A DNA stretch of 64,000 nucleotides from Acidimicrobiales bacterium (GCA_036509795.1 DATCEX010000008.1:12441-76440); one strand, 5' to 3'; positions 13,424 through 57,566 are shown, counted from the stretch's first letter. Numbers and translations are program-made. Notes: generated by a model from the sequence alone, not told the origin.

Positions 13424-14089
13424 GGCGACCTCCCTCAATAACGACGTGCCTCGTACAGGCGTCAGAGTTGGTGCGCACCTGACCCGACACAACGGTACTG
13501 TTGTCACTCTTTCAGAGGCAAGGATGGCGCGCTCCAACGAATGCCCACATTCATCCCAACTCTCCCCCAATTACCGTGATGAGAGGCGGTGGCGATGCGC
13601 GCGATCCGGAACCGATTCGTGAAACTATTTGACACGGTTTACCGCAAGATTTGTTTCATAACTTGTATTCATCCGGGGAGAATTAGACACCGACAGCATC
13701 ACCTGCAGTTTGCTGGCGACGAGAACCGGGCCGAGACCGCGCTTCTCGCTCCAACCGGACCAATCGAACAAAACAACGATTGACGCGCCCCAATAGTTCT
13801 CCGACCACGGATGGCGCTCGGCGTTCTTTTCGATATCTCTGACGGGCATCGACAACGCGAGGAACGTCAGCCGATGGATTGGTAACACCACCAGGGTGTG
13901 AGTGCCCCGAGGACGCGATACCGTCTTTCTCATGGCTGATCAATCCCTCGTAACGCGCTCTTTTCGAGGGTCGTGGTGCACAGTACCGATACACCACGAC
14001 GGTAAGCAGCACCAAAGCGGCACTTTTGACGACGTGACGTCACCACCGCCACCGGGTCATGGGACCGAGGTATTTGAGGAGGTGGCGAG

Positions 14090-17352: not shown

Positions 17353-20119
<2,767 letters not shown>

Positions 20120-45257: not shown

Positions 45258-46304
45258 ATGAGAAGGTTGGTCGCGCGCGCGTTGGTGGTCGCGTTGGTGG
45301 CCGGAGTCACCGTGGTGCCCTTCGCATCTATTGCCCAGGCCCAGTCCTCTCTCATGGTGACAGCCTCAAGTCAAATCGCTACCCGCATCAACACGTCCAT
45401 GCCAGTTGTGCGCCTGCACTTCACTCGCGCCGTCAACGCGCAGAAACTACCGGCCCTCAAGGTCAGCCCCGCCCTGGCCACTGACTGGCAACAAATCAGT
45501 CCCCTAGACGTCCAAGCAGTCGTCGTCGGCAAGGTCGCTCCGATACTCTCCTACTCCATCACATTGCCCACGTCGTTTCGCTGTGGCGCCACTTGTGCGA
45601 TCGCCGCGTCGAGAGTGGTACAAACCACGCTCGACGTCAATGTCACCTGGGAACAGCAGTTGCTAGCGCAACTTAACTACCTCCCGGTGTCCTTCACACC
45701 CCTAGTGACGGGATCGACGCCCGCGACGCAGGTTCCGGGCGTGTTCGCGTGGCGCTTTCCCCTCTTGCCGGCCAGGTTCTCGTCGCAGTGGCAACAAGGG
45801 GTGGACAACGTCGTCGTGACCGGCGCGGTGATGAACTTTCAAAACGTTCACGGTCTGGCCACCACCGGCGTCGTCGACTCCGTAACGTGGAACGCGTTAG
45901 TCAACGCCGCCAACTCCGGCCAAGTTAATCCGGCGACGTACAACTACGTGGACGTGAGCGAGGCGTCGCCCGAAGTGCTCACTTTGTACGAAAACGGTGT
46001 CGGAAAGTTTAAGTCATTGGTCAACACCGGCATCTCCGTGGCCTCCACCGCCGTCGGCACGTACCACGTCTACCTTCGCTTCACGACACAAACGATGTCG
46101 GGCACGAATCCCAACGGAACGCACTACTCCGACCCCGGGATTCCATGGGTCTCGTACTTCAACGGTGGTGACGCCCTGCACGGATTCATCCGTTCAGGGT
46201 ACGGCTACCCCCAGAGTCTCGGTTGCGTCGAGATGCCTTTCGCCTCGGCGGCCACCATCTGGCCCCACACACCCATCGGAACCCTCGTCACCGTTCACGC
46301 CTAG
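45258..46304 (+). CDS. L,D-transpeptidase with peptidoglycan-binding domain
   Basis: Start at ATG 45258 with a signal peptide (MRRLVARALVVALVAG...AQA). It has a PG-binding-like segment (FQNVHGLATTGVVDSVTWNAL) and a YkuD catalytic motif (HG...SLGCVEM). Confidence 0.8.
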   Translation: MRRLVARALVVALVAGVTVVPFASIAQAQSSLMVTASSQIATRINTSMPVVRLHFTRAVNAQKLPALKVSPALATDWQQISPLDVQAVVVGKVAPILSYSITLPTSFRCGATCAIAASRVVQTTLDVNVTWEQQLLAQLNYLPVSFTPLVTGSTPATQVPGVFAWRFPLLPARFSSQWQQGVDNVVVTGAVMNFQNVHGLATTGVVDSVTWNALVNAANSGQVNPATYNYVDVSEASPEVLTLYENGVGKFKSLVNTGISVASTAVGTYHVYLRFTTQTMSGTNPNGTHYSDPGIPWVSYFNGGDALHGFIRSGYGYPQSLGCVEMPFASAATIWPHTPIGTLVTVHA

Positions 46305-47632
46305 GGCGGACCCTCGGGTCCGAACGCGTGGCTGCCACGCTGACGCTCAATTCGTAGCCCGTGCGTCGAGAGGTCGGACGCGACCCCGACCGAACTCGCT
46401 CCGTAACGTTGACGGATGTCGTCGAGTGCGTCGCGAAGTGACGCCGACAATACCTGCTGTTCGCGCGATCGCGCAATCGCCGCGTCACGACTCTGATCGT
46501 GGGTCGTGACGTCAAAGGAGAGTTGCACCTGATTGTCGACACGTTCGAGAAATGACGACGTATACAATCCGAGCAGGCGGACCGGTCGACTCAAGTCGAC
46601 GCTACGCACGAGAGCCTGAGCAATCGACGTCAAGGCCGATTCATCATCCACGCCGAAGGGCAACGTCTGTGAACGCGAGAGTGACTCCAAATCGTCGAAA
46701 CGTATGACCACGCTCACGGTCCGAGCCACTCGACCCTGGGCCCGCAGAGCCCGCGCGACGACCCCCGCGTGGTGGCGACACTTGTCGAGAATCTCGTCCA
46801 GCTCGATGAGTGACGTCGAAAAAGTTTGATCGTGACCCAATGATTTGAGTTCACGATTCGTCACGACGGTGCGTTCGTCCTCACCGCGGGCGTAGGTCAC
46901 GAGGGTCGCCGCCATGGCCGAACCGACGTGACGCGCCAACGTGACCTCATCCACCTTGGCGAGGTCGCGCACCCAGCGAAGACCCAATTGGTGGAGTTTC
47001 TTCGCGGTCGCCGGGCCGACCCCCCACAGAGCGCGCACCGGTAATTCGCGGAGCCACTGCTGCTCGAGTTCGGGACTCACCCACAGCACGCCCGCCCCCT
47101 CGATAAGTCCGTGATCGACCACGTGGGGCTTGGACTGTTTCGACGCTAGCTTGGCAAAGAGCTTGTTGCGACCGAGTCCGACACCGCATTCGAGTAGGAG
47201 CTCCTCACGGATTCGTCGTCGCAACTCCCCCGCGGCCTCCAGCGGTCGAATTCTCATCCGCCCCAAGCTACGTAAATCAGCGAAGACCTCGTCGAGGCCT
47301 AAGGGCTCGTACTCGGGCGTGAGATCGTTCACGATCGAATGAAAGCGGTGCGAGTACTCCTCGTAACGATCAAAACGACCAGGAAGAATGACCAACTCGG
47401 GACACAGTCGGCGCGCCACAACGGACGGCATCGCACTCTTGACGCCGTGTCGGCGCGCCTCGTAACTGGCGCTCGCAATCACGCCGCGTTGCGCCGCACC
47501 CCCGACGCAGACGGGTCGACCACGCAATGACGGGTCATCCAAGATCTCCACCGACGCAAAGAATGCGTCCAGGTCAACGTGAAGGATGGGCGCTGCCTCG
47601 AGGGTCGGTCGCTCAGTTGACGAGTTCGACAC
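46301..47632 (-). CDS. dinB: DNA polymerase IV (Y-family)
   Basis: ILHVDLDAFFASVE, the SIDEVF-type motif GLDEVFADL, and a little-finger region. The GTG start at 47632 was chosen so that the overlap with the upstream gene is about 20 nt. Confidence 0.8.
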   Translation of the reverse strand: MSNSSTERPTLEAAPILHVDLDAFFASVEILDDPSLRGRPVCVGGAAQRGVIASASYEARRHGVKSAMPSVVARRLCPELVILPGRFDRYEEYSHRFHSIVNDLTPEYEPLGLDEVFADLRSLGRMRIRPLEAAGELRRRIREELLLECGVGLGRNKLFAKLASKQSKPHVVDHGLIEGAGVLWVSPELEQQWLRELPVRALWGVGPATAKKLHQLGLRWVRDLAKVDEVTLARHVGSAMAATLVTYARGEDERTVVTNRELKSLGHDQTFSTSLIELDEILDKCRHHAGVVARALRAQGRVARTVSVVIRFDDLESLSRSQTLPFGVDDESALTSIAQALVRSVDLSRPVRLLGLYTSSFLERVDNQVQLSFDVTTHDQSRDAAIARSREQQVLSASLRDALDDIRQRYGASSVGVASDLSTHGLRIERQRGSHAFGPEGPP

Positions 47633-48320
47633 TACGAAACGCCTCAGCGAACGAAAGACCGAGGGGGCGACCGGCCTGGGACGCGCGCCCGCGCACAACG
47701 TCGCTGATTCCCGCGCTGTCGTCACCCGTCTGTGAGTGGTGAGCGAGTACCGCCTTCACCTTGACGTCAATCGTGGAGGTGACGTCGATTGCCACGTCGG
47801 GTTCGTGGGTGCCGCTCAATAAGAGCCACGAAACTTGATGGGCCGGGCCTTGGCTGGGATAGTACAACGGCATCGCGGCCGCGGGTGCCGCGGCGTCCAG
47901 GAGCGCCCAGCCCGTCTCGCGGTGGTCGCGGTGATTCACATATACCCCGCCAAAGAAGGTGGCGGTGGGGTCAGGACCGAGGACCACGTCAGGTCGCACG
48001 CCACGAATGAGCCCGACGAGCGTCGAGCGTAACTCATCGGAGTTCGTGACGTCGCCGTCGGGTACTTCCAGGCTGTGCACCTGGTTGACACCCAGAAGGT
48101 CTGCCGCCAGTTGCAACTCGGCGCGACGGACGTCGCGCAAGCTCTCTGGCTTGGTCTGCGAGCCGTGCGCGCCTTTCGAGCCGTCGCAGATCACCACGAG
48201 GTGCACCGCACATCCCTGAGAGGCCCACTGTGCCATGACTCCGCCTGCTGCGACGTCGGCGTCATCCGGATGGGCGTAGATCGCCATGGCGACCTTCGGG
48301 CGCAGCGACAGACTCCTCAC
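47613..48320 (-). CDS. PIG-L family deacetylase (LmbE/MshB-like)
   Basis: 235 aa with the AHPDDAD motif and HRDH. Confidence 0.7.
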   Translation of the reverse strand: MRSLSLRPKVAMAIYAHPDDADVAAGGVMAQWASQGCAVHLVVICDGSKGAHGSQTKPESLRDVRRAELQLAADLLGVNQVHSLEVPDGDVTNSDELRSTLVGLIRGVRPDVVLGPDPTATFFGGVYVNHRDHRETGWALLDAAAPAAAMPLYYPSQGPAHQVSWLLLSGTHEPDVAIDVTSTIDVKVKAVLAHHSQTGDDSAGISDVVRGRASQAGRPLGLSFAEAFRSVELVN

Positions 48321-48323
48321 GAC

Positions 48324-48794
48324 CTACGTCCGGAGTTTTGGAGCGGTGGTCTTGACCAGCATGCCGACCTCACGAGCGAAGTCGTCGGCGTCTTCAAAAC
48401 CCTTGTACACCGAGGCAAAGCGTACGTACGCCACGTCGTCGACGTCGCGCAGCGCCTCGAGAGTCGCCATACCCACTTCTTCACTGGTGACGTCACGGTT
48501 GAGCAGACGCATGGCTTCTTCCACCGATTCGGCGACGCCATCGAGTCGCGCCTCGTCCACCGGCCGGTTCTTGCACGCCGAACGGATGCCCGAGAGTATT
48601 TTCGCCCTGTCGAAGGACTCGCGCTCGCCCGATCGCTTGGTCACGTACAACACCACCTCTTCAATTCTTTCGAATGTGGTGTAGCGATGACTGCACGCCG
48701 AACATTCGCGCCGGCGACGTATGGCCACTCCATCTTCCGCGAGACGGGAATCGACCACCCGATCGTCGTCTGCAGAACAAAAAGGACAACGCAC
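48324..48794 (-). CDS. nrdR: Transcriptional repressor NrdR
   Basis: 156 aa with MRCPFC...C..C (zinc ribbon) and an ATP-cone. Confidence 0.95.
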   Translation of the reverse strand: MRCPFCSADDDRVVDSRLAEDGVAIRRRRECSACSHRYTTFERIEEVVLYVTKRSGERESFDRAKILSGIRSACKNRPVDEARLDGVAESVEEAMRLLNRDVTSEEVGMATLEALRDVDDVAYVRFASVYKGFEDADDFAREVGMLVKTTAPKLRT

Positions 48795-48825
48795 ACAATG
48801 AGGCTACACCGAAAACCTTGAAATA

Positions 48826-49263
48826 TTAGGGAATTAGGACGTGTTCGCCGGTGACGACGACGCTCGAGTGCAACTCGTTCACGAGTGCCCGACGGGCCAG
48901 AGACGGGTTGACCGGATTGACGCTTTGCGCGATCGACTCGAGAGTGTCACCCGGCTGCACCACGTACACCATGCCCGACGACAGAGTGGAACTCGTCGCC
49001 AGGTCTGTCGACAGACCAACCCCATTGGTGCCCCCGAACGCGTGACCCGGCCACGCCAACAGCACGAACGTCGCCATCAACGACGCCACGACTGCACTAC
49101 GGCGCCGTCGCTGCTTCATGCGTGCGCGAGCCGCGCGGCGATTGGCCACGAGTGGTCCACGGCGATGCGGCGATGCGGCCAAAGGCTCAGGAACGACTCG
49201 AAGGATGGGACGAAACGACTCCTCGACTTCGAACTCGCTGGGGAACAACTCCACTGCGGCCAT
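48826..49263 (-). CDS. LysM-domain membrane protein (ChiZ/Rv2719c-like position)
   Basis: The ATG at 49263 follows an AGGAGAGGGAGAGG SD. It has a TM helix and a C-terminal LysM domain (YVVQPGDTLESIAQ). SOS boxes lie immediately upstream. Confidence 0.75.
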   Translation of the reverse strand: MAAVELFPSEFEVEESFRPILRVVPEPLAASPHRRGPLVANRRAARARMKQRRRRSAVVASLMATFVLLAWPGHAFGGTNGVGLSTDLATSSTLSSGMVYVVQPGDTLESIAQSVNPVNPSLARRALVNELHSSVVVTGEHVLIP

Positions 49264-49285
49264 TTGCCTCTCCCTCTCCTCATTA

Positions 49286-49326
49286 TACGAACACCTGTTC
49301 GTAAGTATAAACGAACAGGTGTTCGT
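49286..49326. promoter_or_regulatory. Two LexA (SOS) boxes upstream of the LysM gene
   Basis: The cores are CGAACACCTGTTCG (49288-49301) and CGAACAGGTGTTCG (49312-49325). Both match the Gram-positive/actinobacterial GAAC-N4-GTTC consensus. Confidence 0.75.
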
Positions 49327-49335
49327 TTGCAATCC

Positions 49336-50691
49336 CTATCCCGTATCGGGGACGAAACTCTGAATTGCGGCTAATTCCCGGCCAACTCGACCGAATACCC
49401 CCTTCGCGACCTTGCGACCCCGAAGGGCCTCCGCGACCTCACTCAGATTGCGAACCATGCGAATTCGGTGTCGTTGGACTAACACCGCACACTCTAGGGA
49501 AAGGGTGTGACACGGATGGTCGTGCGAATCAGTGACTTGCCCATCCGTCACCCAGATCACGGGGCCACCGTGTCGAGGTTGTCGAAGCGCCCACTGCAGC
49601 ACGGGACCATCGACTCCGTTACCAATGTTTCCGGACCTCGCCTGGAGGGCGACGCGCCCCGACTTGGCGAGGATCCAGGCGTTCGGCGTCACCCCCGCAT
49701 CACCGGGACGGTGGCTATAGCCGACGATCAATGCGTCGGGCGCGCTCGAGAGTAGATTTTCGAGTTCTTCCACCGTGACGTCCATCGAACCCGATTGATC
49801 GATCACGATGACACCCCCGGCTCCCGCGGACTTTCGTGCAAAAGCTCGCTGCAGGGGATCGGTCAACAGACGACTCGGAAAGCGCATCACCGATCCGCTG
49901 GTAGACGGCCGGGCTCGACGGTGTCCCGGAGATGGAGCCCGCACCACGTACGGCATCGACTCGTCAAAAAGCACGGGGGCGAACACGCCGCTAGGGGCAC
50001 GACGAGAATCGAGTTCGAGTGAGCGACGAAAGACTCGAAGTTCGTCGGGACCCTCCGGCGCGGCCGCGGCACCGGATCGACTGATCAGTCGCGCAATCGG
50101 GACGGTGACGTTCGTGTAACCCACCGGGCGACCCTCGTCATCGAGGGTCGTGTCACCCAACGTCCGAGTGTCGAGGTCACCCACCATGGCGTTGACCTTC
50201 TTTTTGAGCGATCGCAGGCCCGCCACCCAGGTTGGTTGGACCGAACGCACTCCTCGTAGAAACTCACTCTCGGCTCCGGTGCCGAGGACCGCAAGGAGGA
50301 AACAAACGATCTCGCCCCACGCGCCCGCCTGCGCGAGGCGTTGACCACCCGGGCGTTCCGATCCGTCGCAGAGCAATGCCACGTCAAATCCCAAACGAGC
50401 CAGAATCAAGTTGATCCGGAACTCCTCGGCGCACTCCAACGCACGATCGGTGACGTCGGCGTCGGGTGGCGTGTGTTCTCGCAAGAAGGGGCTGACGCGA
50501 ATGTGCGCGAGCTCGTGCGCGCGTACGACGCGCGACACGGGGTCGTCACCGTGGGGAACGGTGAGCACGCGCTCACCCAGATTGCAACGCGCTCCCCCAC
50601 GAAATACTGAGCCCGGTTCGAGAATCCACGCGCCCTGTTCGAAGCCGTCGAGACGTCCGTGGACCAATTCAGGAAAGACCGAGCCCTTCAA
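49336..50691 (-). CDS. HExxH metallopeptidase-like N-domain fused to a C-terminal VWA domain (DUF2201-like architecture)
   Basis: 451 aa. HELAH is at aa 59-63, followed by ECAEEFRIN. A low-complexity linker follows, then the VIVIDQSGSM MIDAS motif at aa 298-303. Its start overlaps the AAA gene stop by 4 nt. Confidence 0.65.
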   Translation of the reverse strand: MKGSVFPELVHGRLDGFEQGAWILEPGSVFRGGARCNLGERVLTVPHGDDPVSRVVRAHELAHIRVSPFLREHTPPDADVTDRALECAEEFRINLILARLGFDVALLCDGSERPGGQRLAQAGAWGEIVCFLLAVLGTGAESEFLRGVRSVQPTWVAGLRSLKKKVNAMVGDLDTRTLGDTTLDDEGRPVGYTNVTVPIARLISRSGAAAAPEGPDELRVFRRSLELDSRRAPSGVFAPVLFDESMPYVVRAPSPGHRRARPSTSGSVMRFPSRLLTDPLQRAFARKSAGAGGVIVIDQSGSMDVTVEELENLLSSAPDALIVGYSHRPGDAGVTPNAWILAKSGRVALQARSGNIGNGVDGPVLQWALRQPRHGGPVIWVTDGQVTDSHDHPCHTLSLECAVLVQRHRIRMVRNLSEVAEALRGRKVAKGVFGRVGRELAAIQSFVPDTG

Positions 50692-51416
50692 TCCAGGGCT
50701 CCCATCGATAGCGCGTCCAAAATAGCTTGCCCGGTGGTCTCACCAAACAACAGCCGTGCGGCCCGCGCCGCGCCGAGTTTCGCTCGTAGTTGGTCAAAGG
50801 CGTAAAAGCTACGAAGCGAGACTCGGCGATCGGCGGCACCGAGCGATCCGTGCAGGGCGGGGCCCTTGAGGTCGTCACTGAGCGTCGCCACCGCGTGAGG
50901 GTGGGGTCGGTCGATGCGGATGGCGACAGGAAATCTGTCGCGCAGGGCCAAGGGGATGTCCTCCAGGTCTTCCGCGTTCGTCGTCATGACCACCGAAAAA
51001 TCTGGGCCAGGTTTTACCCACTGGCCGGTTTCGGGATTGCGCCATCGTGCCGACTCTTGGGAGTCCGTCATGGCGAGCAGAGTGCTGAGGGCATCACCCG
51101 ACGCGCGATCTACTTCGTCGACCACCAAACGTCCGCCACGACCCGAATTATTCTTCCACGAACGAATCGCGGGACCTTCGCGCCACTCCCACTTACCCGC
51201 ACCAGTCGGCATCCACGTTCCCGTGATCTCCCCCGACGTTAAGTCCTCGGTGCACACCAGGCGCTCGGAGATCCCCCTAGCCAGACCGAGCTTTAACGCG
51301 GCGTACGTCTTACCCGTTCCCGGCGGACCGTACAACAGCACTCGGCCAACGCCCGCGGATAAGACGTCGGTGACGTCAATCCAACATTGCCCTATTTCCC
51401 ATTCGCTCGTCGCCAC
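50688..51416 (-). CDS. Small MoxR/AAA_5-type AAA+ ATPase
   Basis: 242 aa with Walker A (GPPGTGKT), Walker B (RLVVDEVD) and a sensor/Arg region (TTNAEDLEDIPLALRDRF). A GAGGAGG SD precedes it. Confidence 0.75.
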   Translation of the reverse strand: MATSEWEIGQCWIDVTDVLSAGVGRVLLYGPPGTGKTYAALKLGLARGISERLVCTEDLTSGEITGTWMPTGAGKWEWREGPAIRSWKNNSGRGGRLVVDEVDRASGDALSTLLAMTDSQESARWRNPETGQWVKPGPDFSVVMTTNAEDLEDIPLALRDRFPVAIRIDRPHPHAVATLSDDLKGPALHGSLGAADRRVSLRSFYAFDQLRAKLGAARAARLLFGETTGQAILDALSMGALD

Positions 51417-51508: not shown

Positions 51509-52216
51509 CTATTCCCCGGACTCGCCCAGGTAGACAGCACGCACGCGCGGATCGTGCAGGAGTTTTGTCGCGGTGTCGGCGAAGGCAATGACGCCGTTTT
51601 CCATCACGTATCCCCGGTCAGCCAGACGCAGCGCTTGGGCGGCGTTTTGTTCCACGACCAAGACGGTCGTCCCGTTATCACGGATGTCGCCGATGATCCG
51701 GAAGATCTGGTCAATGATCATCGGCGCCAGACCCATCGATGGTTCGTCGAGTAGCAAAAGACGGGGCTGGGACATCAGCGCGCGCCCGATCGCGAGCATT
51801 TGTTGCTCGCCGCCCGAGAGGTTGCCCCCCAACTGCTTACGTCGCTCCTTGAGAATCGGAAACAACACAAACATCTTTTCCATATCCGCTGCGTAATTAT
51901 CCTTACGACCGAAGGCCCCCATCTCGAGGTTTTCTTGCACCGTCATCTGGGGAAAAATACGTCGACCCTCGGGTACGTGGCTGATTCCCATCGAGGAGAA
52001 CATGTGGGCTTTCACGTTCGTGACGTCCGCGCCCTCGAACGTGATCGTCCCCGACGACGGTGCGTGTAGCCCGGAGAGCATTCGCAGGGTGGTGGACTTG
52101 CCCGCACCGTTGGCCCCGAGCAGGGTCACGACCTCACCTTGATTGACGTCGAAGGATATTCCGTGCAGCGCGGTGATGGCACCGTACCTGACGACTGCGT
52201 CCTTCACACTCAGCAT
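51509..52216 (-). CDS. livF: Branched-chain amino acid ABC transporter ATPase
   Basis: 235 aa with GANGAGKST, LSGGEQQML, LLLDEPS and a LivF-type length and N-terminus. Confidence 0.85.
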   Translation of the reverse strand: MLSVKDAVVRYGAITALHGISFDVNQGEVVTLLGANGAGKSTTLRMLSGLHAPSSGTITFEGADVTNVKAHMFSSMGISHVPEGRRIFPQMTVQENLEMGAFGRKDNYAADMEKMFVLFPILKERRKQLGGNLSGGEQQMLAIGRALMSQPRLLLLDEPSMGLAPMIIDQIFRIIGDIRDNGTTVLVVEQNAAQALRLADRGYVMENGVIAFADTATKLLHDPRVRAVYLGESGE

Positions 52217-53025
52217 TACTTCGTCCCCTCCGCGACGCCCGTGTCCACCGATCCGAGGTAGGCCTCGATGACCGCCGGGTTGGCCCGAATCTCCTCGGGT
52301 GAACCTTCGGCAATGACCGAGCCAAAATTGAGCACGTACAGTCGCTCCGCGAGCGCCATCACCAACTTCATGTCGTGCTCAATCAAGAGGATGGAGACCC
52401 CCATCTCATCGCGTACCTTGCGAATCAAACGCACCAGTTCCAGCTTCTCGGTGGGATTGGTACCCGCCGCGGGCTCATCGAGCAGGAGAACTTCGGGACT
52501 CGTGGCCAATCCACGTGCGATCTCGAGTCGCCGTCGCGCACCGTAGTTGAGAGACGCGGCGATCGTGTTGGCGTGATCGGTCAAGCCGACGAACGCGAGG
52601 AGTTCCTTGGTTCGCGCGTCGGAATGATGCTCGTCGCGTCGAGTACGCGGACCCTTCAGCATCGCTCCCACCGCACCCAAACCGCGGTGCGACTCCGCAC
52701 CGATCTTGATGTTCTCGAAGGTCGTCATCGCACCAAACATTCGCGACGCCTGGAACGTCCTGGCCACACCGGCGACACTCACCCGAAAGGGCTTCTTGCC
52801 AATGATGGACATGGTCTTTCCCTGGCCGTTGGTGAACGTGATCGTTCCCTCTTGCGGCGCGTAGACACCGGTAAGTGAATTAAACAATGACGTTTTGCCC
52901 GCCCCGTTGGGCCCGATGATGGCGAGAATCTCTCCGCGATTCTGGTGCAGACTCACGTCGTTAAGCGACACCACGCCACCGAAGCGCAAGGTGACGTCCT
53001 TCACGTCAAACAAGAGTGAGCTCAC
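52216..53025 (-). CDS. livG: Branched-chain amino acid ABC transporter ATPase
   Basis: 269 aa with GPNGAGKTS and the LivG-type insertion and C-terminus (RANPAVIEAYLG). Confidence 0.85.
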   Translation of the reverse strand: MSSLLFDVKDVTLRFGGVVSLNDVSLHQNRGEILAIIGPNGAGKTSLFNSLTGVYAPQEGTITFTNGQGKTMSIIGKKPFRVSVAGVARTFQASRMFGAMTTFENIKIGAESHRGLGAVGAMLKGPRTRRDEHHSDARTKELLAFVGLTDHANTIAASLNYGARRRLEIARGLATSPEVLLLDEPAAGTNPTEKLELVRLIRKVRDEMGVSILLIEHDMKLVMALAERLYVLNFGSVIAEGSPEEIRANPAVIEAYLGSVDTGVAEGTK

Positions 53026-54416
53026 GTCTCCTCCTGGACTCGACTGTGGGGCCCGATATTGGTGAGCAACGCGTCGGGAGCGGTTCCCGCCTTGATTTGG
53101 TTGACTTCTCGACGACGGCGCCGTGAGGGGAAGAGACCCGCGGGGCGAAAGATCATCATGACAACGAGCAGGGCACCGAGGTACATGTACAGGTCCTGAC
53201 TGTTATAGCCAGAGGGCGGAGAGTGCTCGAGGTACACCACGAAGATCTGGATGAACAGGCCACCGAGGACGACGCCCAAAATCGATCCCATGCCGCCGAA
53301 GATGACGAGCACCAAAATGTTGATCGAGAACTGAAGGGTAAACGTCGGAGGGGTGACGAAGAGGGTCTGCGAAGCGGTGACGACGCCCGCGAACCCCGCG
53401 CTCGCGGCGCCAATGGCGAAGGCCATCACCTTGTATTTCAGCGGATTGATCCCCAGCGACTCCGCGGCCACTTCGTCCTCGCGAATCGCCACCCACGCTC
53501 GGCCCACTCGCGAATGCTCCAGGCTCGAGAAGATGATGAGGAATAAGACAACGAAGCCCACGGTCAAGTAGTAATACGGCACCGGATTCAAACCCCATTG
53601 GTACTTCAACGCGCCGAGGTGAACCGACAGAAAGGGTATCTGGTTGGTACCCGTTGCCCCACCAGTAATGCCGAAGAGGTTGTTGGCGAACAAGTAGATG
53701 ATCTCACCGAAACCCAGCGTTACGATGGCCAAATAGTCACCGCGCAGTCGCAGCGTCGGTAAGCCGATGAGAACGCCGCACAACATCGCCAGGGCGATGG
53801 CAAATGGGATCGCGAAGAATGTATTCAAGTGCGTGTGAAAGGGGGGCGGCGTGGGTAGCGCACCCGTGACCCACGCCGTCGTATAGGCACCGATCGCGTA
53901 GAAGGCCACGAATCCCAGGTCGAGCAGACCAGCGAAGCCGGTCACGACATTGAGGCCGATGGCGAGCAACACGTACACCAGAATTTGTTGGACTATCTGG
54001 GTCTGCCACGAATTGTCGGTGATTACGTGCGGCAAACCGATGGCGAGCACCAAGCCAATGGCGAAAAAGACGTACCGAGTCGACTTAAATTTGGACCGAC
54101 GCTTCGATCCTTGAATCATCGAGGTCATCGCCTGCACGGCCTGGCCACGAAAGTGCGTGCGATCAGACCACGAACGGTTCACGTACCGGACGGACCAAGT
54201 GAGCACCACCACCACGACCGTCATGAGCAGAGCGACCAACCAACGTTGCGCGGTGAACAGGCCAAAGAAAGTCACGTGCGAGGCGAACGAGCCGGTAAAA
54301 CCAGCAGTCGGTTCGGCACCATTCCCTTCGGGCCCCGTCATGATCGTCACCACCGCGGCGATCAGAGCAATGGTGGCAATCCGCTTGACGTGGGCGTTGC
54401 GCCAGAGTTCCTTCAT
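53022..54416 (-). CDS. livM: Branched-chain amino acid ABC transporter permease with N-terminal extension
   Basis: 464 aa with a LivM-like core (GLLDLGFVAFYAIGAY). Confidence 0.8.
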   Translation of the reverse strand: MKELWRNAHVKRIATIALIAAVVTIMTGPEGNGAEPTAGFTGSFASHVTFFGLFTAQRWLVALLMTVVVVVLTWSVRYVNRSWSDRTHFRGQAVQAMTSMIQGSKRRSKFKSTRYVFFAIGLVLAIGLPHVITDNSWQTQIVQQILVYVLLAIGLNVVTGFAGLLDLGFVAFYAIGAYTTAWVTGALPTPPPFHTHLNTFFAIPFAIALAMLCGVLIGLPTLRLRGDYLAIVTLGFGEIIYLFANNLFGITGGATGTNQIPFLSVHLGALKYQWGLNPVPYYYLTVGFVVLFLIIFSSLEHSRVGRAWVAIREDEVAAESLGINPLKYKVMAFAIGAASAGFAGVVTASQTLFVTPPTFTLQFSINILVLVIFGGMGSILGVVLGGLFIQIFVVYLEHSPPSGYNSQDLYMYLGALLVVMMIFRPAGLFPSRRRRREVNQIKAGTAPDALLTNIGPHSRVQEET

Positions 54417-55390
54417 CAGGCGGATCTCCCCAAACGCTCGCCGAGGATGCCCGTGGGTCGGAACATTAAGACGAGAACTAGGACCACGAACGCGACGACG
54501 TCAATGTAGGCACCGTTAACGAACGCTACCGAAAAACTCTCCACGACACCTAGGAGCAGACCGCCCAGCACGGCCCCTCGCAAGTTGCCAATGCCGCCCA
54601 GCACCGCAGCAGAAAATGCTTTGATCGCCGGCGTGAATCCCATGGTGTAGACGACGCCCACGGGAATGGAGTACAAGAAGCCAGCCACCCCACCGAGGAA
54701 GCCGCCGAGCATGAAGGTCACCGCGATCGTTCGGTCGATGTTCACGCCCATCAACGAGGCAGTTTCGGCGTCTTGGGCGACGGCTCGAATACCTCGCCCC
54801 AATTTGCTCGTGGCCACGAGTCGCTCTAGGGACACCAGCATGATGACACCGACGACGAAGATCACGATGTAATAGGTCTGAACCGACGCCCCGAAGATCG
54901 TAAACACCGTGTTGTTCGTGTAGGGCGCATCGATCGATAGGTTGATGCGACCGAATTCCTTGCCGACGAAGTTGTAAATGAAGTACGACGCGCCTATTGC
55001 GCTGATCAAGTAGGCCAACTTTGGGGCGTGGCGTCGTCGCAATGGCCGATAGGCCACTCGTTCGATTCCTAACGCGACGACAGCTCCGACCACCCCGCCA
55101 ATCAGGATTCCGGCAATGAGATACAGGATTGATTCCACCGCGGTCGGAGTCGAGTTGCCGACTAAGACCTTCATGAGAAAGAAACTCGCGAAGGCTCCAC
55201 TCATGAAGATCTCCGAGTGGGCGAAATTAATCAATCGCAAGACGCCGTACACCATGGTGTAGCCGATGGCCACCATCGCGTAGATGAAACCGTTCACGAC
55301 ACCACCTACGAGCAGTCCCCAAAATTCGTGACCCAGAGTTGCGAAGTGCGACGAGAAATAGGACACCAACGCGCACACCCCCTCTTCCAA
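54416..55390 (-). CDS. livH: Branched-chain amino acid ABC transporter permease
   Basis: LivH-like sequence (GYTMVYGVLRLINFAHSE). The start is probably the internal TTG/GTG at about 55369/55366, after a GAGGGGG SD. Confidence 0.8.
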   Translation of the reverse strand: MEEGVCALVSYFSSHFATLGHEFWGLLVGGVVNGFIYAMVAIGYTMVYGVLRLINFAHSEIFMSGAFASFFLMKVLVGNSTPTAVESILYLIAGILIGGVVGAVVALGIERVAYRPLRRRHAPKLAYLISAIGASYFIYNFVGKEFGRINLSIDAPYTNNTVFTIFGASVQTYYIVIFVVGVIMLVSLERLVATSKLGRGIRAVAQDAETASLMGVNIDRTIAVTFMLGGFLGGVAGFLYSIPVGVVYTMGFTPAIKAFSAAVLGGIGNLRGAVLGGLLLGVVESFSVAFVNGAYIDVVAFVVLVLVLMFRPTGILGERLGRSA

Positions 55391-55414
55391 TTTCCAGCGA
55401 CAGGGAAGTCTAAA

Positions 55415-55459
55415 CCAACAACACTGCCGGGGGCATGACGCCCCCGGCAGTGTTGTTGG
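55415..55459 (-). other. Intercistronic 20-bp perfect stem-loop between livK and livH
   Basis: CCAACAACACTGCCGGGGGC-atgac-GCCCCCGGCAGTGTTGTTGG, with no flanking U-tract. Confidence 0.7.
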
Positions 55460-55474
55460 TCAATTAACTATCGA

Positions 55475-56692
55475 TTAATTGTGGCCGAACTGGACGATCT
55501 TGCCACCCTGGACCTGGTAGTAGTCAATCTGACCCTTACCACTGCCCAAGAGGTTGCCGTCCGACTGGAACGCAATCGGGCCCGTGATTCCCTTGAGAGA
55601 AACCTTGTGGAGTTCAGGAATCAGACTCGCGCGAATCTTGCTCACCGACGCCTTGGTCGAAACCCGAGCCAACGCGTCAATGATGATGCTCGTCGAGTCG
55701 TAGGCCTGAGGCGCGTACAGCGCCTTGGCCGACGTGACGCCGCCCGAGATCTTCAAGAACTGCGCCTCGAGCTTGCCGGTGAAGTTACCACCTGAGCTAC
55801 CACCAGCGGCGCTCAAGAAGACACCGTTCGCGGCGCTCGACGGGGACGTACCACTGATGAGCGAGGTCGACTCTGAGCCGTCACCCGACATAATGACACC
55901 CTTGTATCCCGCACTGTGCAGCGCGCCGACAATCAAGCCGAAGTCACAGTAGTACCCACCGTAGAAGACGCCAGCGGGGTTCGAGGTCTTAATCTGAGTA
56001 GCCATCGCGCTGTACTGCGACGTCGGCGCCGTACCCGGGGGACACGAGGACGACTGCGGGTACGACGCGGCCGTCACCTTGGCACCAAGAGTCTTGGCGT
56101 CGGTGGCGACCACCTGGGCCAGACCAGCACCGTAGAAGGATCCGTCGTTCAGTACTTCGAGAGTCTTCGCCGACTTCTTGGTCACGAGGAACGTCGCGTC
56201 CGCCTGGCCCTGCACGTCGTCACCGTAGACCACGCGCATGAAGTTGTTGTTGACCTTGCCAGTAGTCAAACCCGCCGCGGTAGCCGAAGGACTCACCGTA
56301 GCGATTTTGGCGTTGACGTAGAAAGGCTCAGCTGACTTGGTCGCTCCGGAGAACGCCGGTCCGACGACGGCCACGAGAGTCTTGTTGGCAATTGCCTGTT
56401 GGGCAGCAGCGGGTGACAGGGTCGACGAACCCTGGTCGTCGTAGAACGCGTCCTTGAGCGTGAAGGGCAGCAAACCTGTTGCATTGGCGTCCTGGATTGC
56501 GAGTTCAACGCCCCACTTCATGTTGATTCCCAACACCGCGTTTCCGCCGGAAAGTGGTCCCTCGTAACCAATGGTAAACACCGGCTTCGACGCAGCGCTC
56601 GATGCCGAGGCAACGCCGATGACCGGCACTGCCATCAGTAACAAGGCGCTCGACGAGACCGCAGCCACCGTCTTATTCAAACGAAACTTCAT
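55475..56692 (-). CDS. livK: Branched-chain amino acid ABC transporter substrate-binding protein
   Basis: The ATG at 56692 follows an AAGGGAGA SD. It has a signal peptide and a type I periplasmic-binding fold sequence. Confidence 0.75.
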   Translation of the reverse strand: MKFRLNKTVAAVSSSALLLMAVPVIGVASASSAASKPVFTIGYEGPLSGGNAVLGINMKWGVELAIQDANATGLLPFTLKDAFYDDQGSSTLSPAAAQQAIANKTLVAVVGPAFSGATKSAEPFYVNAKIATVSPSATAAGLTTGKVNNNFMRVVYGDDVQGQADATFLVTKKSAKTLEVLNDGSFYGAGLAQVVATDAKTLGAKVTAASYPQSSSCPPGTAPTSQYSAMATQIKTSNPAGVFYGGYYCDFGLIVGALHSAGYKGVIMSGDGSESTSLISGTSPSSAANGVFLSAAGGSSGGNFTGKLEAQFLKISGGVTSAKALYAPQAYDSTSIIIDALARVSTKASVSKIRASLIPELHKVSLKGITGPIAFQSDGNLLGSGKGQIDYYQVQGGKIVQFGHN

Positions 56693-56872
56693 CAGTTCGT
56701 CTCCCTTATTTGATGTCAATCTGCATTTCTATGCGCCCACCCGATGCTCCCCAAAGGACAACAAATTAGGCACATTTCATACACGGACCATTTTGGTCAC
56801 TTAGGCACAGTAGCAGTGGGGTCCCGCGAAATCCGATTCGCCCGTGTTAACAGTTATGACAATTTTTACAGG

Positions 56873-56929
56873 CGAACAGGTGTTTGATTTACTCGTTTAT
56901 CTGCTCTAGGCTACGAACAACTGTTCGTG
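56873..56929. promoter_or_regulatory. Two LexA (SOS) boxes upstream of lexA
   Basis: CGAACAGGTGTTTG (56873-56886, one mismatch) and CGAACAACTGTTCG (56914-56927), about 15 nt before the lexA SD. Confidence 0.7.
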
Positions 56930-56942
56930 TACGGAGGAACCA

Positions 56943-57566
56943 ATGGCCGAAGTTCTCACACCCATGAGACGCAAGATTCTCGAGTACATCGTGACGTGTC
57001 AACGCGAGCGAAACTTCCCGCCAACTATTCGCGAAATTGCCGCCCACGTCGGACTCAACGCTCCCGCCACGGTGGCCAATCACATTGAGGTACTCAAGAA
57101 GGCTGGCTATATCGAGAAGAACCCCAAACAGCCCAGAACCCTCACCGTGCGACTGGACATGGATGCACCCAAGAACGTGTCACCGGCTCATCAAATTCCC
57201 TTCGTGGGTGATGTCGCCGCAGGAACGGGCGTGCTGGCGGCAGAAATTGATCACGAGCTCATGTCGGTGCCCGAACAGTTCGCGGGTCGCGGCGAAAGTT
57301 TCGTACTGCAAGTCCGCGGAGACTCCATGATTGACGCGGGCATCCTCTCCGGAGATTTCCTCGTTGTACAGCGTCAACCGACCGCCAAAACCGGTGAGAT
57401 CGTGGTCGCCGGCATTCCAGGTGACGAGGCGACCGTGAAGCGGTACTTCCCGCAGGGCTCACACGTCGTGCTCAAGCCGGAAAATCCCAGCATGGAACCC
57501 ATGGAATTCAACGCCAATGACGTCGTCATCTTTGGTCGAGTGATTTCCGTCCTTCGTCACTACTAA
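56943..57566 (+). CDS. lexA: LexA repressor
   Basis: 207 aa with an N-terminal wHTH, the Ala-Gly cleavage site (VAAGTG), the Ser (RGDSM) and Lys (VKRY) dyad, and a GGAGG SD. Confidence 0.95.
   Translation: MAEVLTPMRRKILEYIVTCQRERNFPPTIREIAAHVGLNAPATVANHIEVLKKAGYIEKNPKQPRTLTVRLDMDAPKNVSPAHQIPFVGDVAAGTGVLAAEIDHELMSVPEQFAGRGESFVLQVRGDSMIDAGILSGDFLVVQRQPTAKTGEIVVAGIPGDEATVKRYFPQGSHVVLKPENPSMEPMEFNANDVVIFGRVISVLRHY

Follow-up and report, generated by a model that had tools for sequence, protein, structure and literature searches.

To our knowledge, gene pairs that encode a MoxR-type ATPase and a VWA protein are widespread, and the client is known for very few of them. Every biochemically characterised MoxR/AAA_5–VWA pair that we are aware of is a remodelling or metal-insertion device. 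VWA subunits with an HExxH head have, as far as we know, been noticed by sequence analysis only, namely in jumbo phages, in viral 'cobST' clusters and in the DUF2201 proteins, which usually adjoin a MoxR ATPase. For the MoxR–VWA pair of Acidianus two-tailed virus, a role in virion assembly has been shown. The eukaryotic protein midasin (Rea1) unites six AAA modules and a MIDAS domain, which grips acidic ligands, in a single polypeptide of about 4,900 amino acids that has no peptidase motif. In addition, vWA-MoxR conflict systems were reportedly described by Kaur et al. in 2020.

In group 2.2 jumbo phages, a pair has been predicted that consists of a MoxR AAA+ protein and a protein with an N-terminal metallopeptidase domain followed by a vWA domain (Iyer et al. 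2021, PMC7824862). Viral two-gene 'cobS/cobT' clusters have also been described, for example in the Actinomycetia phage DSL-LC01, in which an AAA ATPase is accompanied by a 'cobalamin biosynthesis protein' (Liu et al. 2021, PMC8651126). The architecture studied here has thus been predicted in both; the present analysis concerns a large family that has no model in Pfam, NCBIfam, PADLOC or the PDB, and a chromosomal branch of this family that adjoins SOS genes. The gene pair was analyzed in a stretch of 64,000 nucleotides from an Acidimicrobiales bacterium, referred to as the window.

Results

Two overlapping genes that travel together

Two ORFs, encoding proteins of 242 and 451 amino acids, were found exactly where the original prediction had placed them, and both are located on the minus strand (Table 1). 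The GTG start codon of the ATPase gene is preceded by GAGGAGG. The four nucleotide overlap between the ATPase gene and the partner gene was also recovered, but it had been reported as ATGA, whereas the window reads ...GAT TGA / TTG AAG... Four shared nucleotides, reading GTGA, ATGA or TTGA, recur in at least 65 of 86 related loci, and the phage-like loci L087, L088 and L174 have such an overlap in their gene calls. The dN/dS values against the nearest relative were 0.04 for the ATPase gene and 0.12 for the partner gene, and the values for nrdR and dinB were similar. Both genes are real and are under strong purifying selection. The tight coupling that had been claimed for them extends well beyond the window: a comparison of gene neighbourhoods found both genes side by side, with the ATPase gene directly upstream of the partner gene, in about 85 chromosomal loci and in 79 of 80 IMG/VR viral loci kept for inspection.

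Table 1. Positions of the gene pair, its motifs and domains, and the neighbouring SOS genes in the window
Feature	Position	Strand	Basis or remark
AAA_5/MoxR-type AAA+ ATPase gene, 242 aa, GTG start	50688..51416	-	ORF and Pfam AAA_5 match
Walker A GPPGTGKT, residues 30-37	51306..51329	-	Sequence read; G-x-G-x-GKT in 140 homologues
Walker B VVDEVD, residues 98-103	51108..51125	-	D100 and E101 conserved
LALRDRF, residues 156-162, box VII / arginine-finger region	50931..50951	-	L-x-DRF conserved
TTGA overlap of ATPase stop and partner TTG start, predicted translational coupling	50688..50691	-	Sequence read
Partner gene, 451 aa: zincin-like N-domain, helical domain, linker, VWA/MIDAS domain	49336..50691	-	ORF
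N-terminal domain, residues 1-230	50002..50691	-	AF2 pLDDT 91.9, pTM 0.89
HELAH, residues 59-63, candidate zinc-binding/catalytic motif	50503..50517	-	Conservation
ECAEEFRIN, residues 86-94	50410..50436	-	E89/E90 candidate third metal ligand
Linker, residues 261-290	49822..49911	-	Conserved linear motif, AF2 pLDDT <50
VWA-like domain, residues ~291-425	49417..49821	-	Foldseek, PHROG 33218
MIDAS DQSGSM, residues 298-303 (D298, S300, S302)	49783..49800	-	Conservation
Two perfect actinobacterial SOS boxes, CGAACACCTGTTCG and CGAACAGGTGTTCG	49288..49325	.	11 nt past partner stop
SOS-boxed LysM–nrdR–PIG-L–dinB operon	46301..49263	-	Pfam; synteny
chiZ/yneA-like LysM membrane protein	48826-49263	-	Pfam
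nrdR	48324-48794	-	Pfam
PIG-L deacetylase	47613-48320	-	Pfam
dinB	46301-47725	-	Pfam
lexA context region	56873..57566	+	Pfam; lexA itself 56943-57566
Two SOS boxes of lexA	56873-56886, 56914-56927	+	Box scan

The upstream gene encodes a predicted AAA_5/MoxR-type ATPase

The 242-residue protein matched the Pfam model AAA_5 over profile positions 2-139 of 139 (E 6.9e-16, 58.9 bits, cutoff 22). The Walker A, Walker B and LALRDRF sensor-region motifs that had been read in it are all present, and sensor-1 residues T145/N147 lie just upstream of LALRDRF. Walker A, D100-E101, T145/N147 and L-x-D-R161-F are all conserved among 140 homologues from chromosomes and viruses; R161 is assigned as the putative arginine finger on the model of MoxR-family ATPases. 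By profile and motifs, the protein classifies as an AAA_5/MoxR-type ATPase, and it is predicted to form a hexameric ring that hydrolyzes ATP. The best PDB sequence matches were to the AAA ring of midasin (1.6e-19, one AAA module), NorQ (2.8e-07) and CbbQ (4.9e-06). Midasin resembles the gene pair also in that it combines AAA_5 modules with a MIDAS domain. Among phage protein families, the ATPase matched PHROG 16448 'ATPase' with 1.1e-33 and, more weakly, PHROG 249 (phage 'cobS') with 1.8e-12.

The partner protein combines a gluzincin-like motif with a VWA-like domain

More than 536 homologues of the partner protein were found, and the family comprises about 1,800 representative clusters at 50% identity. 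The protein had no match in Pfam, NCBIfam or PADLOC (E<=1) or among PDB sequences, and a search of the PDB with a profile of 25 partner sequences returned nothing meaningful. Because no model of these collections is matched, the partner is not a recognisable member of the DUF2201, CobT, NorD or CoxE families. No characterised family claimed the ATPase and the partner in the profile searches, in agreement with the original description of the pair as uncharacterised. A match to PHROG 33218 covered residues 258-424 (2.5e-28), and the AF2 model of the full-length protein had a pLDDT of 83.5.

In the classic gluzincin arrangement, an HExxH motif is followed 26-27 residues on by a Glu, with both on consecutive helices after a small sheet. 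The model of the N-terminal domain contains three short strands (residues 23-45), a helix with HExxH (51-66), a helix with E86/E89/E90 (82-99) and a helical bundle, so that the HExxH helix and the Glu helix (E89/E90) are predicted to stand in this order behind the three strands. When the conservation of the motif was checked in 146 non-identical chromosomal and viral sequences, it was found to be kept nearly throughout: H59 in 143, E60 in 145, H63 in 144, E89 in 143 and E90 in 144 of them, while R92 and N94 were present in all 146. E86 and C87 are conserved in the chromosomal clade only. In a minority of family members HExxH is replaced by RExxR and the MIDAS is retained; therefore, the His site is dispensable in at least some members.

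A Foldseek search of the PDB with the N-domain model gave a best match with an E value of 1.3, to a non-peptidase, and no solved zincin was matched. Pfam peptidase profiles matched neither the partner nor diverse relatives. In the Foldseek search with the full-length partner, selecase appeared only at E 2.1, and an IrrE-like phage protein (Foldseek E 1.6) was the sole trace of IrrE. An assignment to the ImmA/IrrE, SprT/Wss1 or selecase-like clans is unsupported, as the model of residues 1-230 had no PDB match. Of the zinc-peptidase head that had been proposed, the conserved HExxH…E motif was confirmed, but a peptidase fold or profile match was not found; the term is to be read as a motif-level call, and zinc binding and peptidase activity of the partner as putative. 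ImmA/IrrE (M78) and Wss1/Spartan–Cdc48 offer a functional resemblance only, as HExxH metalloproteases tied to DNA damage. In IrrE, HExxH is followed by a Glu ligand about 27 residues on, and Wss1 works with an AAA+ unfoldase. In contrast to the partner, these proteins have no VWA domain, and neither profiles nor folds of theirs matched it.

The linker carries the motif G266…R274-L-L-x-D278-P-x-x-R282-x-F284. In the chromosomal and viral sequences, G266 and D278 are invariant, R282 is present in 141 of 146 and F284 in 144 of 146.

In the C-terminal domain, D298, S300, S302 and D383 (in WVTDG) were found in 146 of 146 sequences and are also invariant in 25 distant representatives. At position 382, the chromosomal clade has Thr, and viral members have either Thr or Cys. 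Foldseek matches of the AF2 model to solved structures were weak (CMG2 vWA, E 0.03, prob 0.96; BatB, E 0.05; TM about 0.3 on the target), and those to phage VWFA and CobT-VWA proteins had E values of 1e-4 to 1e-2. No Pfam VWA model detected the window partner even at E<=1, and VWA_CoxE was found in two relatives with E 0.0017-0.089, below its cutoff. The claimed intact MIDAS thus withstood the conservation check, both in DxSxS and in the downstream metal ligands. The VWA domain as such was not recognised by Pfam profiles; the AF2 model, the weak Foldseek matches and the invariant DxSxS and D383 suggest a VWA-like fold.

Comparison with characterised and predicted MoxR–VWA systems

The first alternative to a protein-cutting machine is a chelatase-type chaperone, which would insert a metal cofactor without cutting proteins, like CobS/CobT, NorQ/NorD or CoxD/CoxE. 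In that case, the HExxH…EE site would serve to retain or pass on a metal ion, or it would have a structural role only. The characterised MoxR/AAA_5–VWA pairs are precedents for it, and among them NorQ and CbbQ are nearest to the ATPase. As in CbbQ/CbbO and NorQ/NorD, an AAA_5 ATPase of comparable size, which matches theirs in the PDB sequence search, is joined to a partner with an intact MIDAS. However, CbbQ_C was not matched, the partner shows no sequence relationship to CbbO and NorD and differs from them in its HExxH head, and genes for Rubisco or NO reductase are absent from the vicinity.

The viral cobST clusters are similar in that they, too, place a VWA protein behind an AAA_5 ATPase, and phage relatives of the pair are routinely annotated as CobS/CobT (also in PMC8651126). 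Among cultured phages, the ATPase alone matched distant ATPases of actinophages (Gordonia phage Forza and DSL-LC01). With the proteins encoded downstream in these two phages, the HExxH…EExR stretch alone was aligned by hhalign; the DSL-LC01 protein shares HExxHxxxS…EExR with the partner at E 0.004. Foldseek also ties the partner to phage 'CobT VWA' proteins, one of which matched it over its full length (E 1.5e-4); compared with the viral CobT proteins, the window partner is 150-250 residues shorter. At E<=1, the CobS/CobT models (NCBIfam equivalogs; Pfam CobT, CobT_C and CobS_N) matched neither window protein and none of the relatives scanned, which were P0185, P0232, P0262 and P0273 as well as proteins of two cultured actinophages. 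CobS/CobT was rejected as an assignment, as the pair and the DSL-LC01 partner protein matched no curated CobS/CobT model and cobN was not found among the 10 large window ORFs scanned.

Two further observations favour the chaperone, namely the N-domain without a peptidase fold match and the occurrence of RExxR variants. Against it stand the gluzincin-type arrangement of HExxH and a Glu 26-27 residues on in the N-domain model, the lack of any match to CobS, CobT, CobT_C, CbbQ_C or NorD models by the pair and the phage relatives tested, and the absence of cobN or a client enzyme both from the 10 large window ORFs scanned and from the surroundings of related loci (a window ORF of 1214 aa encodes a PAS-GAF-GGDEF-EAL protein, not CobN). 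We regard a chaperone that does not cut proteins as possible, though unlikely.

The DUF2201 proteins (PF13203 DUF2201_N and PF09967 VWA-like) share with the pair a putative metallopeptidase head, a VWA-like tail and a MoxR neighbour. The partner had been likened to the DUF2201-type architecture, and this filing had to be abandoned, as PF13203 and PF09967 remained unmatched at E<=1 by the window protein and at E<=0.1 by 24 diverse relatives. The jumbo-phage pair agrees in its two-gene layout, in the order of HExxH domain and vWA domain in the partner, in being phage-borne and in being known from sequence analysis only, a likeness drawn from the described architectures. It differs in that virion assembly was proposed for it, whereas the family described here has an early, replication and anti-restriction gene context, and the chromosomal SOS-adjacent branch is absent from that paper (PMC7824862).

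A phage family with one chromosomal branch

Relatives of the partner were found on 184 IMG/VR viral contigs, and PHROG matches exist for both proteins. Neighbouring genes in the viral loci encode proteins of replication, methylation and anti-restriction (SNF2, DnaB/AAA_25, ArdC, DNA methylases) and WhiB, and virion structural proteins are absent from the 25 commonest neighbour families. Phages of Actinobacteria commonly carry the pair, and the family as a whole resides mainly in phages. When the window partner and two distantly related family members were compared by tblastn with 50,697 GenBank phage records, no match was obtained, nor did a search of plasmids for relatives give one. The phage-borne nature of the family had not been mentioned in the original prediction.

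The chromosomal branch was represented by relatives in 211 Acidimicrobiales species genomes. In a tree of the partner proteins, the chromosomal clade is monophyletic, nested within the viral set and less diverse than it. This topology suggests that the chromosomal branch goes back to one transfer from phage to host; the direction of transfer is not settled, as the trees behind it were built by NJ and rooted at the midpoint only.

The chromosomal branch is fixed next to SOS genes

In all of the approximately 85 chromosomal loci inspected, out of the 211 species genomes, the module occupies one fixed locus. The order lexA, module, SOS boxes and LysM–nrdR–PIG-L–dinB persists down to 45-49% identity, and synteny with the downstream operon was found in at least 80 genomes. 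The module adjoins the SOS-boxed operon in about 84 of 86 loci, in spite of rearrangements in the surroundings. In the window, the two SOS boxes overlap promoter-like hexamers of the LysM operon, and nearly all related genomes have this pair of boxes behind the partner gene. The SOS adjacency that had been noted is therefore real, but it is not an oddity of one genome, as the synteny is fixed across Acidimicrobiales.

In the window, the livKHMGF operon lies between lexA and the module, the ATPase gene begins 92 nt after livF, and these 92 nt contain no SOS box. The liv operon can be found on either side of the module (locus L065). The lexA gene is directly divergent from the ATPase gene in 11 of 80 scanned genome loci, and additionally in the loci L089 and L173. 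SOS boxes 84-194 nt upstream of the ATPase gene were found solely where lexA is the divergent neighbour. As the pair has no SOS box of its own unless lexA adjoins it, SOS control of the pair is not established by boxes. No conserved acidic motif that might serve as a MIDAS ligand was found in the cytoplasmic tail of the LysM protein encoded next to the pair, and a search of the literature on MoxR/VWA proteins linked to LexA or SOS found nothing relevant. Only gene order suggests a link of the pair to DNA damage.

A second alternative is that a phage pair unrelated to the SOS response was captured, i.e. a module for superinfection exclusion or defence against phages, or a counter-defence tool that was retained by chance, and that its position next to lexA is a frozen accident of the insertion site. 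The mostly viral family with its anti-restriction and methylase neighbours in phages would fit, as would the lack of a dedicated SOS box and the liv operon, which comes and goes in the same region. However, defence genes are typically patchy and found in variable islands, whereas the module occupies one fixed locus in the approximately 85 loci inspected, is under purifying selection of a housekeeping level and stays next to the SOS operon despite rearrangements around it. The PADLOC matches of the ATPase were at the P-loop level only (IetA, 6.9e-05, 19 residues), with none for the partner, and with regard to vWA-MoxR conflict systems, bpMoxR was matched at E 0.075 in the P-loop only and a conserved third component was not found. 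We consider a captured pair unconnected with SOS clearly unlikely.

Virion assembly by a chaperone plus protease, which has been proposed for the same domain architecture in phages (PMC7824862), is very unlikely as a role of the chromosomal copy, as the window copy and more than 200 relatives are chromosomal with no other phage genes nearby, and the commonest viral neighbours are replication, methylase and anti-restriction genes and not structural ones.

Discussion

The reading that we prefer, with a probability of roughly 0.55, is that the two genes encode a phage-derived MoxR–VWA machine for remodelling or processing of proteins, which was taken over by the host. If it works as CbbQ/CbbO, NorQ/NorD and midasin do, the ATPase would assemble as an ATP-driven ring, onto which the 451-residue partner would dock. 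The MIDAS (D298-S300-S302…D383 with a divalent cation) would grip an acidic residue of the target protein, ATP hydrolysis would remodel the gripped target, and the HExxH…EE site would probably cut it in the manner of a gluzincin-like metalloprotease. Complex formation, peptidase activity, the target and a role in DNA damage or replication stress are what we infer from these analogies. The original proposal of an 'ATP-gated protease or maturation device' is reasonable as a hypothesis.

A more specific form of the phage-derived machine, to which we assign a low probability, is a metalloprotease that depends on ATP and serves in the actinobacterial response to DNA damage. In one version, it would act in checkpoint recovery and remove the adjacent ChiZ/YneA-like LysM division inhibitor via its cytoplasmic tail; in Bacillus, YneA is removed by CtpA and DdcP (PMC13396833). 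In another version, it would be a bacterial counterpart of Wss1/Spartan–Cdc48 and clear proteins that are stuck on DNA. If true, such a protease would explain why the module has stayed between lexA and the chiZ-like–nrdR–PIG-L–dinB operon throughout the order.

The locus defines a large HExxH–VWA family (about 1,800 clusters) without a model in Pfam, NCBIfam, PADLOC or the PDB, and its N-domain offers a confident structure prediction without a solved relative. It also represents a natural experiment, in that the module is present in many actinophages and one branch has been fixed at the heart of the SOS cluster of the host. If the host copy does not act in DNA-damage recovery, the family would be an entry point to the abundant 'CobS/CobT-like' pairs of phages. 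If it does, it would represent a new class of SOS-linked protease and a phage gene that was taken over for housekeeping.

An overlapping gene pair with a partner family of its own

The module consists of the gene for an AAA_5/MoxR-type ATPase and the gene for a 451-aa partner protein. All motifs that the original prediction quoted for the two proteins were found in ORFs of the window. The ATGA overlap that it had claimed turned out to be a TTGA (…GAT TGA / TTG AAG…). The ATPase was clearly identified as an AAA_5 protein (Pfam E 6.9e-16; 58.9 bits versus a cutoff of 22), and the solved structures nearest to it by sequence were a midasin AAA module (1.6e-19), NorQ (2.8e-07) and CbbQ (4.9e-06). 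For the partner, no match was obtained in Pfam, NCBIfam or PADLOC at E<=1, and a sequence search of the PDB also yielded none. In comparison with the nearest genome, the dN/dS values were 0.04 (ATPase) and 0.12 (partner), and those of the neighbours nrdR and dinB were 0.03 and 0.05, respectively.

Coordinates and elements of the gene pair and its surroundings in the window
Feature	Position	Strand	Residues	Remarks
ATPase ORF, 242 aa	50688-51416	minus		GTG start, preceded by GAGGAGG
ATPase motifs			30-37; 98-103; 156-162	GPPGTGKT; VVDEVD; LALRDRF
Partner ORF, 451 aa	49336-50691	minus		TTG start
Partner motifs			59-63; 86-94; 298-303	HELAH; ECAEEFRIN; DQSGSM
Partner N-domain			to about 225	three strands, HExxH helix, helix with E86/E89/E90, helical bundle (AlphaFold2)
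Partner linker	49822-49911		261-289 (261-290)	low confidence, pLDDT below 50
Partner α/β domain			about 291-425	AlphaFold2
Asp/His-rich stretch	49513-49533		387-393	VTDSHDHP
Partner C-terminal tail			about 426-451	after α/β domain
Two SOS boxes	49288-49325			after partner stop
Predicted hairpin	49264-49345	minus
LysM gene	48826-49332	minus		mechanical ORF start TTG at 49332
PIG-L/LmbE-type deacetylase with dinB	46301-48320			deacetylase (47613-48320) between nrdR and dinB (46301-47725)
livKHMGF-type ABC operon	51509-56719
Methylmalonyl-CoA mutase	6301-8019
PAS/GAF protein	8430-10988	minus		large signalling ORF
GGDEF-EAL protein	11000-13570	minus		large signalling ORF
KatG-like peroxidase	17849-20119
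PAS-GAF-GGDEF-EAL protein, 1214 aa	20305-23949	plus		large signalling ORF

More than 536 homologues of the partner were found, with lengths of about 445-450 aa. Those with a source name were all annotated as 'hypothetical protein' and stemmed from Acidimicrobiales metagenome-assembled genomes (MAGs), and one protein, VIJ86_03545 of an Acidimicrobiales MAG, was identical to the partner in the window. Clustered at 50% identity, the matches of an exhaustive profile search numbered 1,800 at E<=1e-3 and 1,275 at E<=1e-10. None of 25 diverse family members matched a Pfam family. Judged by sequence, the partner family is captured by none of the models tested. Architectures of this kind have been noticed earlier by sequence analysis only, namely in Pfam DUF2201, in the MoxR and peptidase-vWA pairs of jumbo phages (PMC7824862), and in viral 'cobST' clusters, where cobT was regarded as 'mistakenly annotated as a peptidase' (PMC8651126).

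Residue conservation was quantified for 146 non-identical partner sequences, 84 chromosomal and 62 viral. H59, E60 and H63 were kept in 143, 145 and 144 sequences, E89 and E90 in 143 and 144, and R92 and N94 in all 146. The same was true for D298, S300, S302 and D383, the MIDAS metal site of the VWA-like domain. In the ATPase, Walker A and B, sensor 1 (T145/N147) and L-x-D-R161-F were kept across 140 homologues. In a minority branch of the partner family (P0159, P0222, P0242, P0196 and 2 of the 62 viral sequences) both histidines of the HExxH motif were replaced, mostly by arginine (RExxR), and the MIDAS residues were intact; P0222 reads QQLIM at this position. This branch resembles a pseudo-peptidase form of the protein.

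Predicted structure of the partner

The full-length AlphaFold2 model of the partner (pLDDT 83.5, pTM 0.78; alignment of 31 sequences) comprised four parts, i.e., an N-domain, a linker, an α/β domain and a C-terminal tail. In Foldseek searches of the PDB, the C-terminal part retrieved weak vWA matches alone, CMG2 vWA (E 0.03, probability 0.96) and BatB. Among viral models, the top match was a 451-aa phage protein over the full length (E 1.3e-15), and phage 'CobT VWA' proteins ranked next, with E values of about 1e-4. Residues 1-230, modelled alone, gave a very confident prediction (pLDDT 91.9, pTM 0.89) with no significant Foldseek match in the PDB, the best being a non-peptidase with an E value of 1.3. 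As modelled, the N-domain is a domain without a solved relative. The partner is thus a putative peptidase by its motif, by the conservation of that motif and by the sequence of secondary structure elements, and not by a fold match.

In the linker, G266 and D278 were invariant and R282 and F284 nearly so. The linear motif G266…R-L-L-x-D-P-x-x-R-x-F was strongly conserved despite the low pLDDT; a docking peptide that binds the ATPase, a self-cleavage site and an autoinhibitory site are possible roles.

A stable chromosomal position beside SOS genes

A scan of one representative genome per species revealed relatives in 211 species, and the best 80 of these were all Acidimicrobiales or Acidimicrobiaceae genomes, save for a few mislabelled bins. 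The gene order was ATPase, partner, two perfect SOS boxes, a LysM membrane protein, nrdR, PIG-L deacetylase and dinB. It was near-universal in the best 80 of the 211 and in six further loci, and was still present in lineages with an identity of only 45-49%. The position of the pair next to SOS-controlled genes is thus very stable, and a literature search retrieved no report of its fixation in the SOS neighbourhood of Acidimicrobiales. The lexA gene of Mycobacterium tuberculosis and the gene of the LysM division suppressor Rv2719c point away from each other, and the gap between them contains SOS boxes (PMC3381160); this gap is the exact site that is occupied by the module in Acidimicrobiales.

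The lexA gene was directly divergent from the ATPase gene in 11 of 80 genome loci scanned and in two additional loci, L089 and L173. At loci where lexA is not the neighbour, including the window, the livKHMGF operon separates the two genes. This operon occupies that place in many genomes, is missing from the region in others, and shifts its position relative to the module (L001, L003 and L065); in L065 it is flanked by the partner gene and the LysM gene. SOS boxes upstream of the ATPase gene were found solely where lexA adjoins; they are the operators of lexA itself and lie at a distance of 84-194 nt from the start of the ATPase gene. In the window, no SOS box was present in the 92-nt gap that separates livF from the ATPase gene. 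Confined to lexA-adjacent loci and belonging to lexA, the upstream boxes do not establish LexA control of the pair.

The two SOS boxes downstream of the partner gene are exact reverse complements of each other, and in the minus-strand RNA a perfect hairpin of 16 bp is predicted (−28 kcal/mol, z −6.1). Related genomes contained 76 distinct operator pairs, of which 61 retain the ability to base-pair at all four central positions, and a compensatory change from ACCT/AGGT to ACTT/AAGT was observed. The double box could be a LexA operator and, for the transcript arriving from upstream, also a 3' hairpin or roadblock. The mechanical start of the LysM gene places both boxes inside the coding region. 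The true start is likely the ATG at 49263, preceded by GGAGAGGGAGAGG, which results in a protein of 145 aa, the same as its homologues. Its topology matches that of ChiZ and YneA, division inhibitors of the SOS response. The PIG-L deacetylase of the SOS-boxed operon was always located between nrdR and dinB, in the window and in about 80 related loci, and its ORF as called overlaps that of dinB by about 110 nt. In one deep-branching relative, the LysM gene and nrdR are separated by an inserted ORF of 1136 aa without a Pfam match (L173:9024-12434). The large signalling ORFs, the KatG-like peroxidase and the methylmalonyl-CoA mutase of the window are unrelated to the pair, and cobN was absent among the large ORFs examined.

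Relatives on viral contigs

Both proteins matched phage families of PHROG, the ATPase 16448 ('ATPase', 1.1e-33) and the partner 33218 (unknown function, 2.5e-28). Members with 35-38% identity to the partner were encoded on contigs of small ORFs, mostly without Pfam match, with scattered genes for Phage_L5_gp82, HA, DUF3846 and a primase-helicase; the four nucleotide overlap was also present on these contigs. A scan of IMG/VR yielded 184 viral contigs with a relative, and in 79 of the 80 that were kept an ATPase with 47-57% identity to that of the window was encoded directly upstream. The immediate neighbours were mostly small unknown proteins, methylases and an anti-restriction protein, and the larger ones included SNF2 helicases, DnaB/AAA_25 helicase-primases, ArdC, DNA methylases, WhiB, DUF1281_C and a family A polymerase. 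Virion structural proteins were not among the 25 most frequent neighbour families.

GenBank phage isolates contained distant versions only, i.e., gp119 and gp117 of Gordonia phage Forza, and an AAA ATPase with a 'cobalamin biosynthesis protein' in Actinomycetia phage DSL-LC01. In profile comparisons, the proteins encoded downstream of these two phage ATPases aligned with the partner solely in the HExxHxxxS…EExR stretch, and the phage proteins did not match curated CobS/CobT models.

In neighbour-joining trees, the chromosomal sequences formed a monophyletic group of lower diversity than the viral set (mean partner distances of 0.42 versus 0.66). With midpoint rooting, the chromosomal clade was nested within the viral sequences in the partner tree and was sister to them in the ATPase tree. 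The trees fit a single ancient capture by the host, with the direction of transfer unproven. The Asp/His-rich stretch directly after D383 was conserved in the chromosomal clade and variable among viral members; it is possibly a second metal site that was gained after host capture.

Possible function of the pair

The working model considered most likely, by analogy with MoxR/AAA_5–VWA pairs that have been characterised, is that the ATPase would form a ring on which the partner docks, that the MIDAS site would grip an acidic residue of a client protein, and that the client would be remodelled by ATP-driven action. The near-invariance of the HExxH…EE site suggests that the client would also be cleaved.

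A non-proteolytic chaperone that inserts metal is the main rival, and this reading would agree with an N-domain lacking a peptidase fold match and with the RExxR variants. However, no client enzyme is encoded nearby, and CobS/CobT/NorD/CoxE profiles did not match. It is rather improbable that the pair is a DNA-damage-linked protease that removes, e.g., the adjacent ChiZ/YneA-like division inhibitor. A precedent for inhibitor removal is the action of CtpA and DdcP on YneA (PMC13396833); a conserved acidic motif was looked for in the tail of the LysM protein, and none was found. A defence module or selfish remnant agrees with a phage origin, but is a poor fit to fixation at a single site, to strong purifying selection and to the absence of PADLOC matches. 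Virion assembly, the idea put forward in PMC7824862, cannot apply to the chromosomal copy.

The gene context is a loose hint at DNA transactions or host takeover in phages and host alike: the phage module is found among replication and anti-restriction genes and the host module lies in the lexA–chiZ-like–nrdR–dinB cluster.
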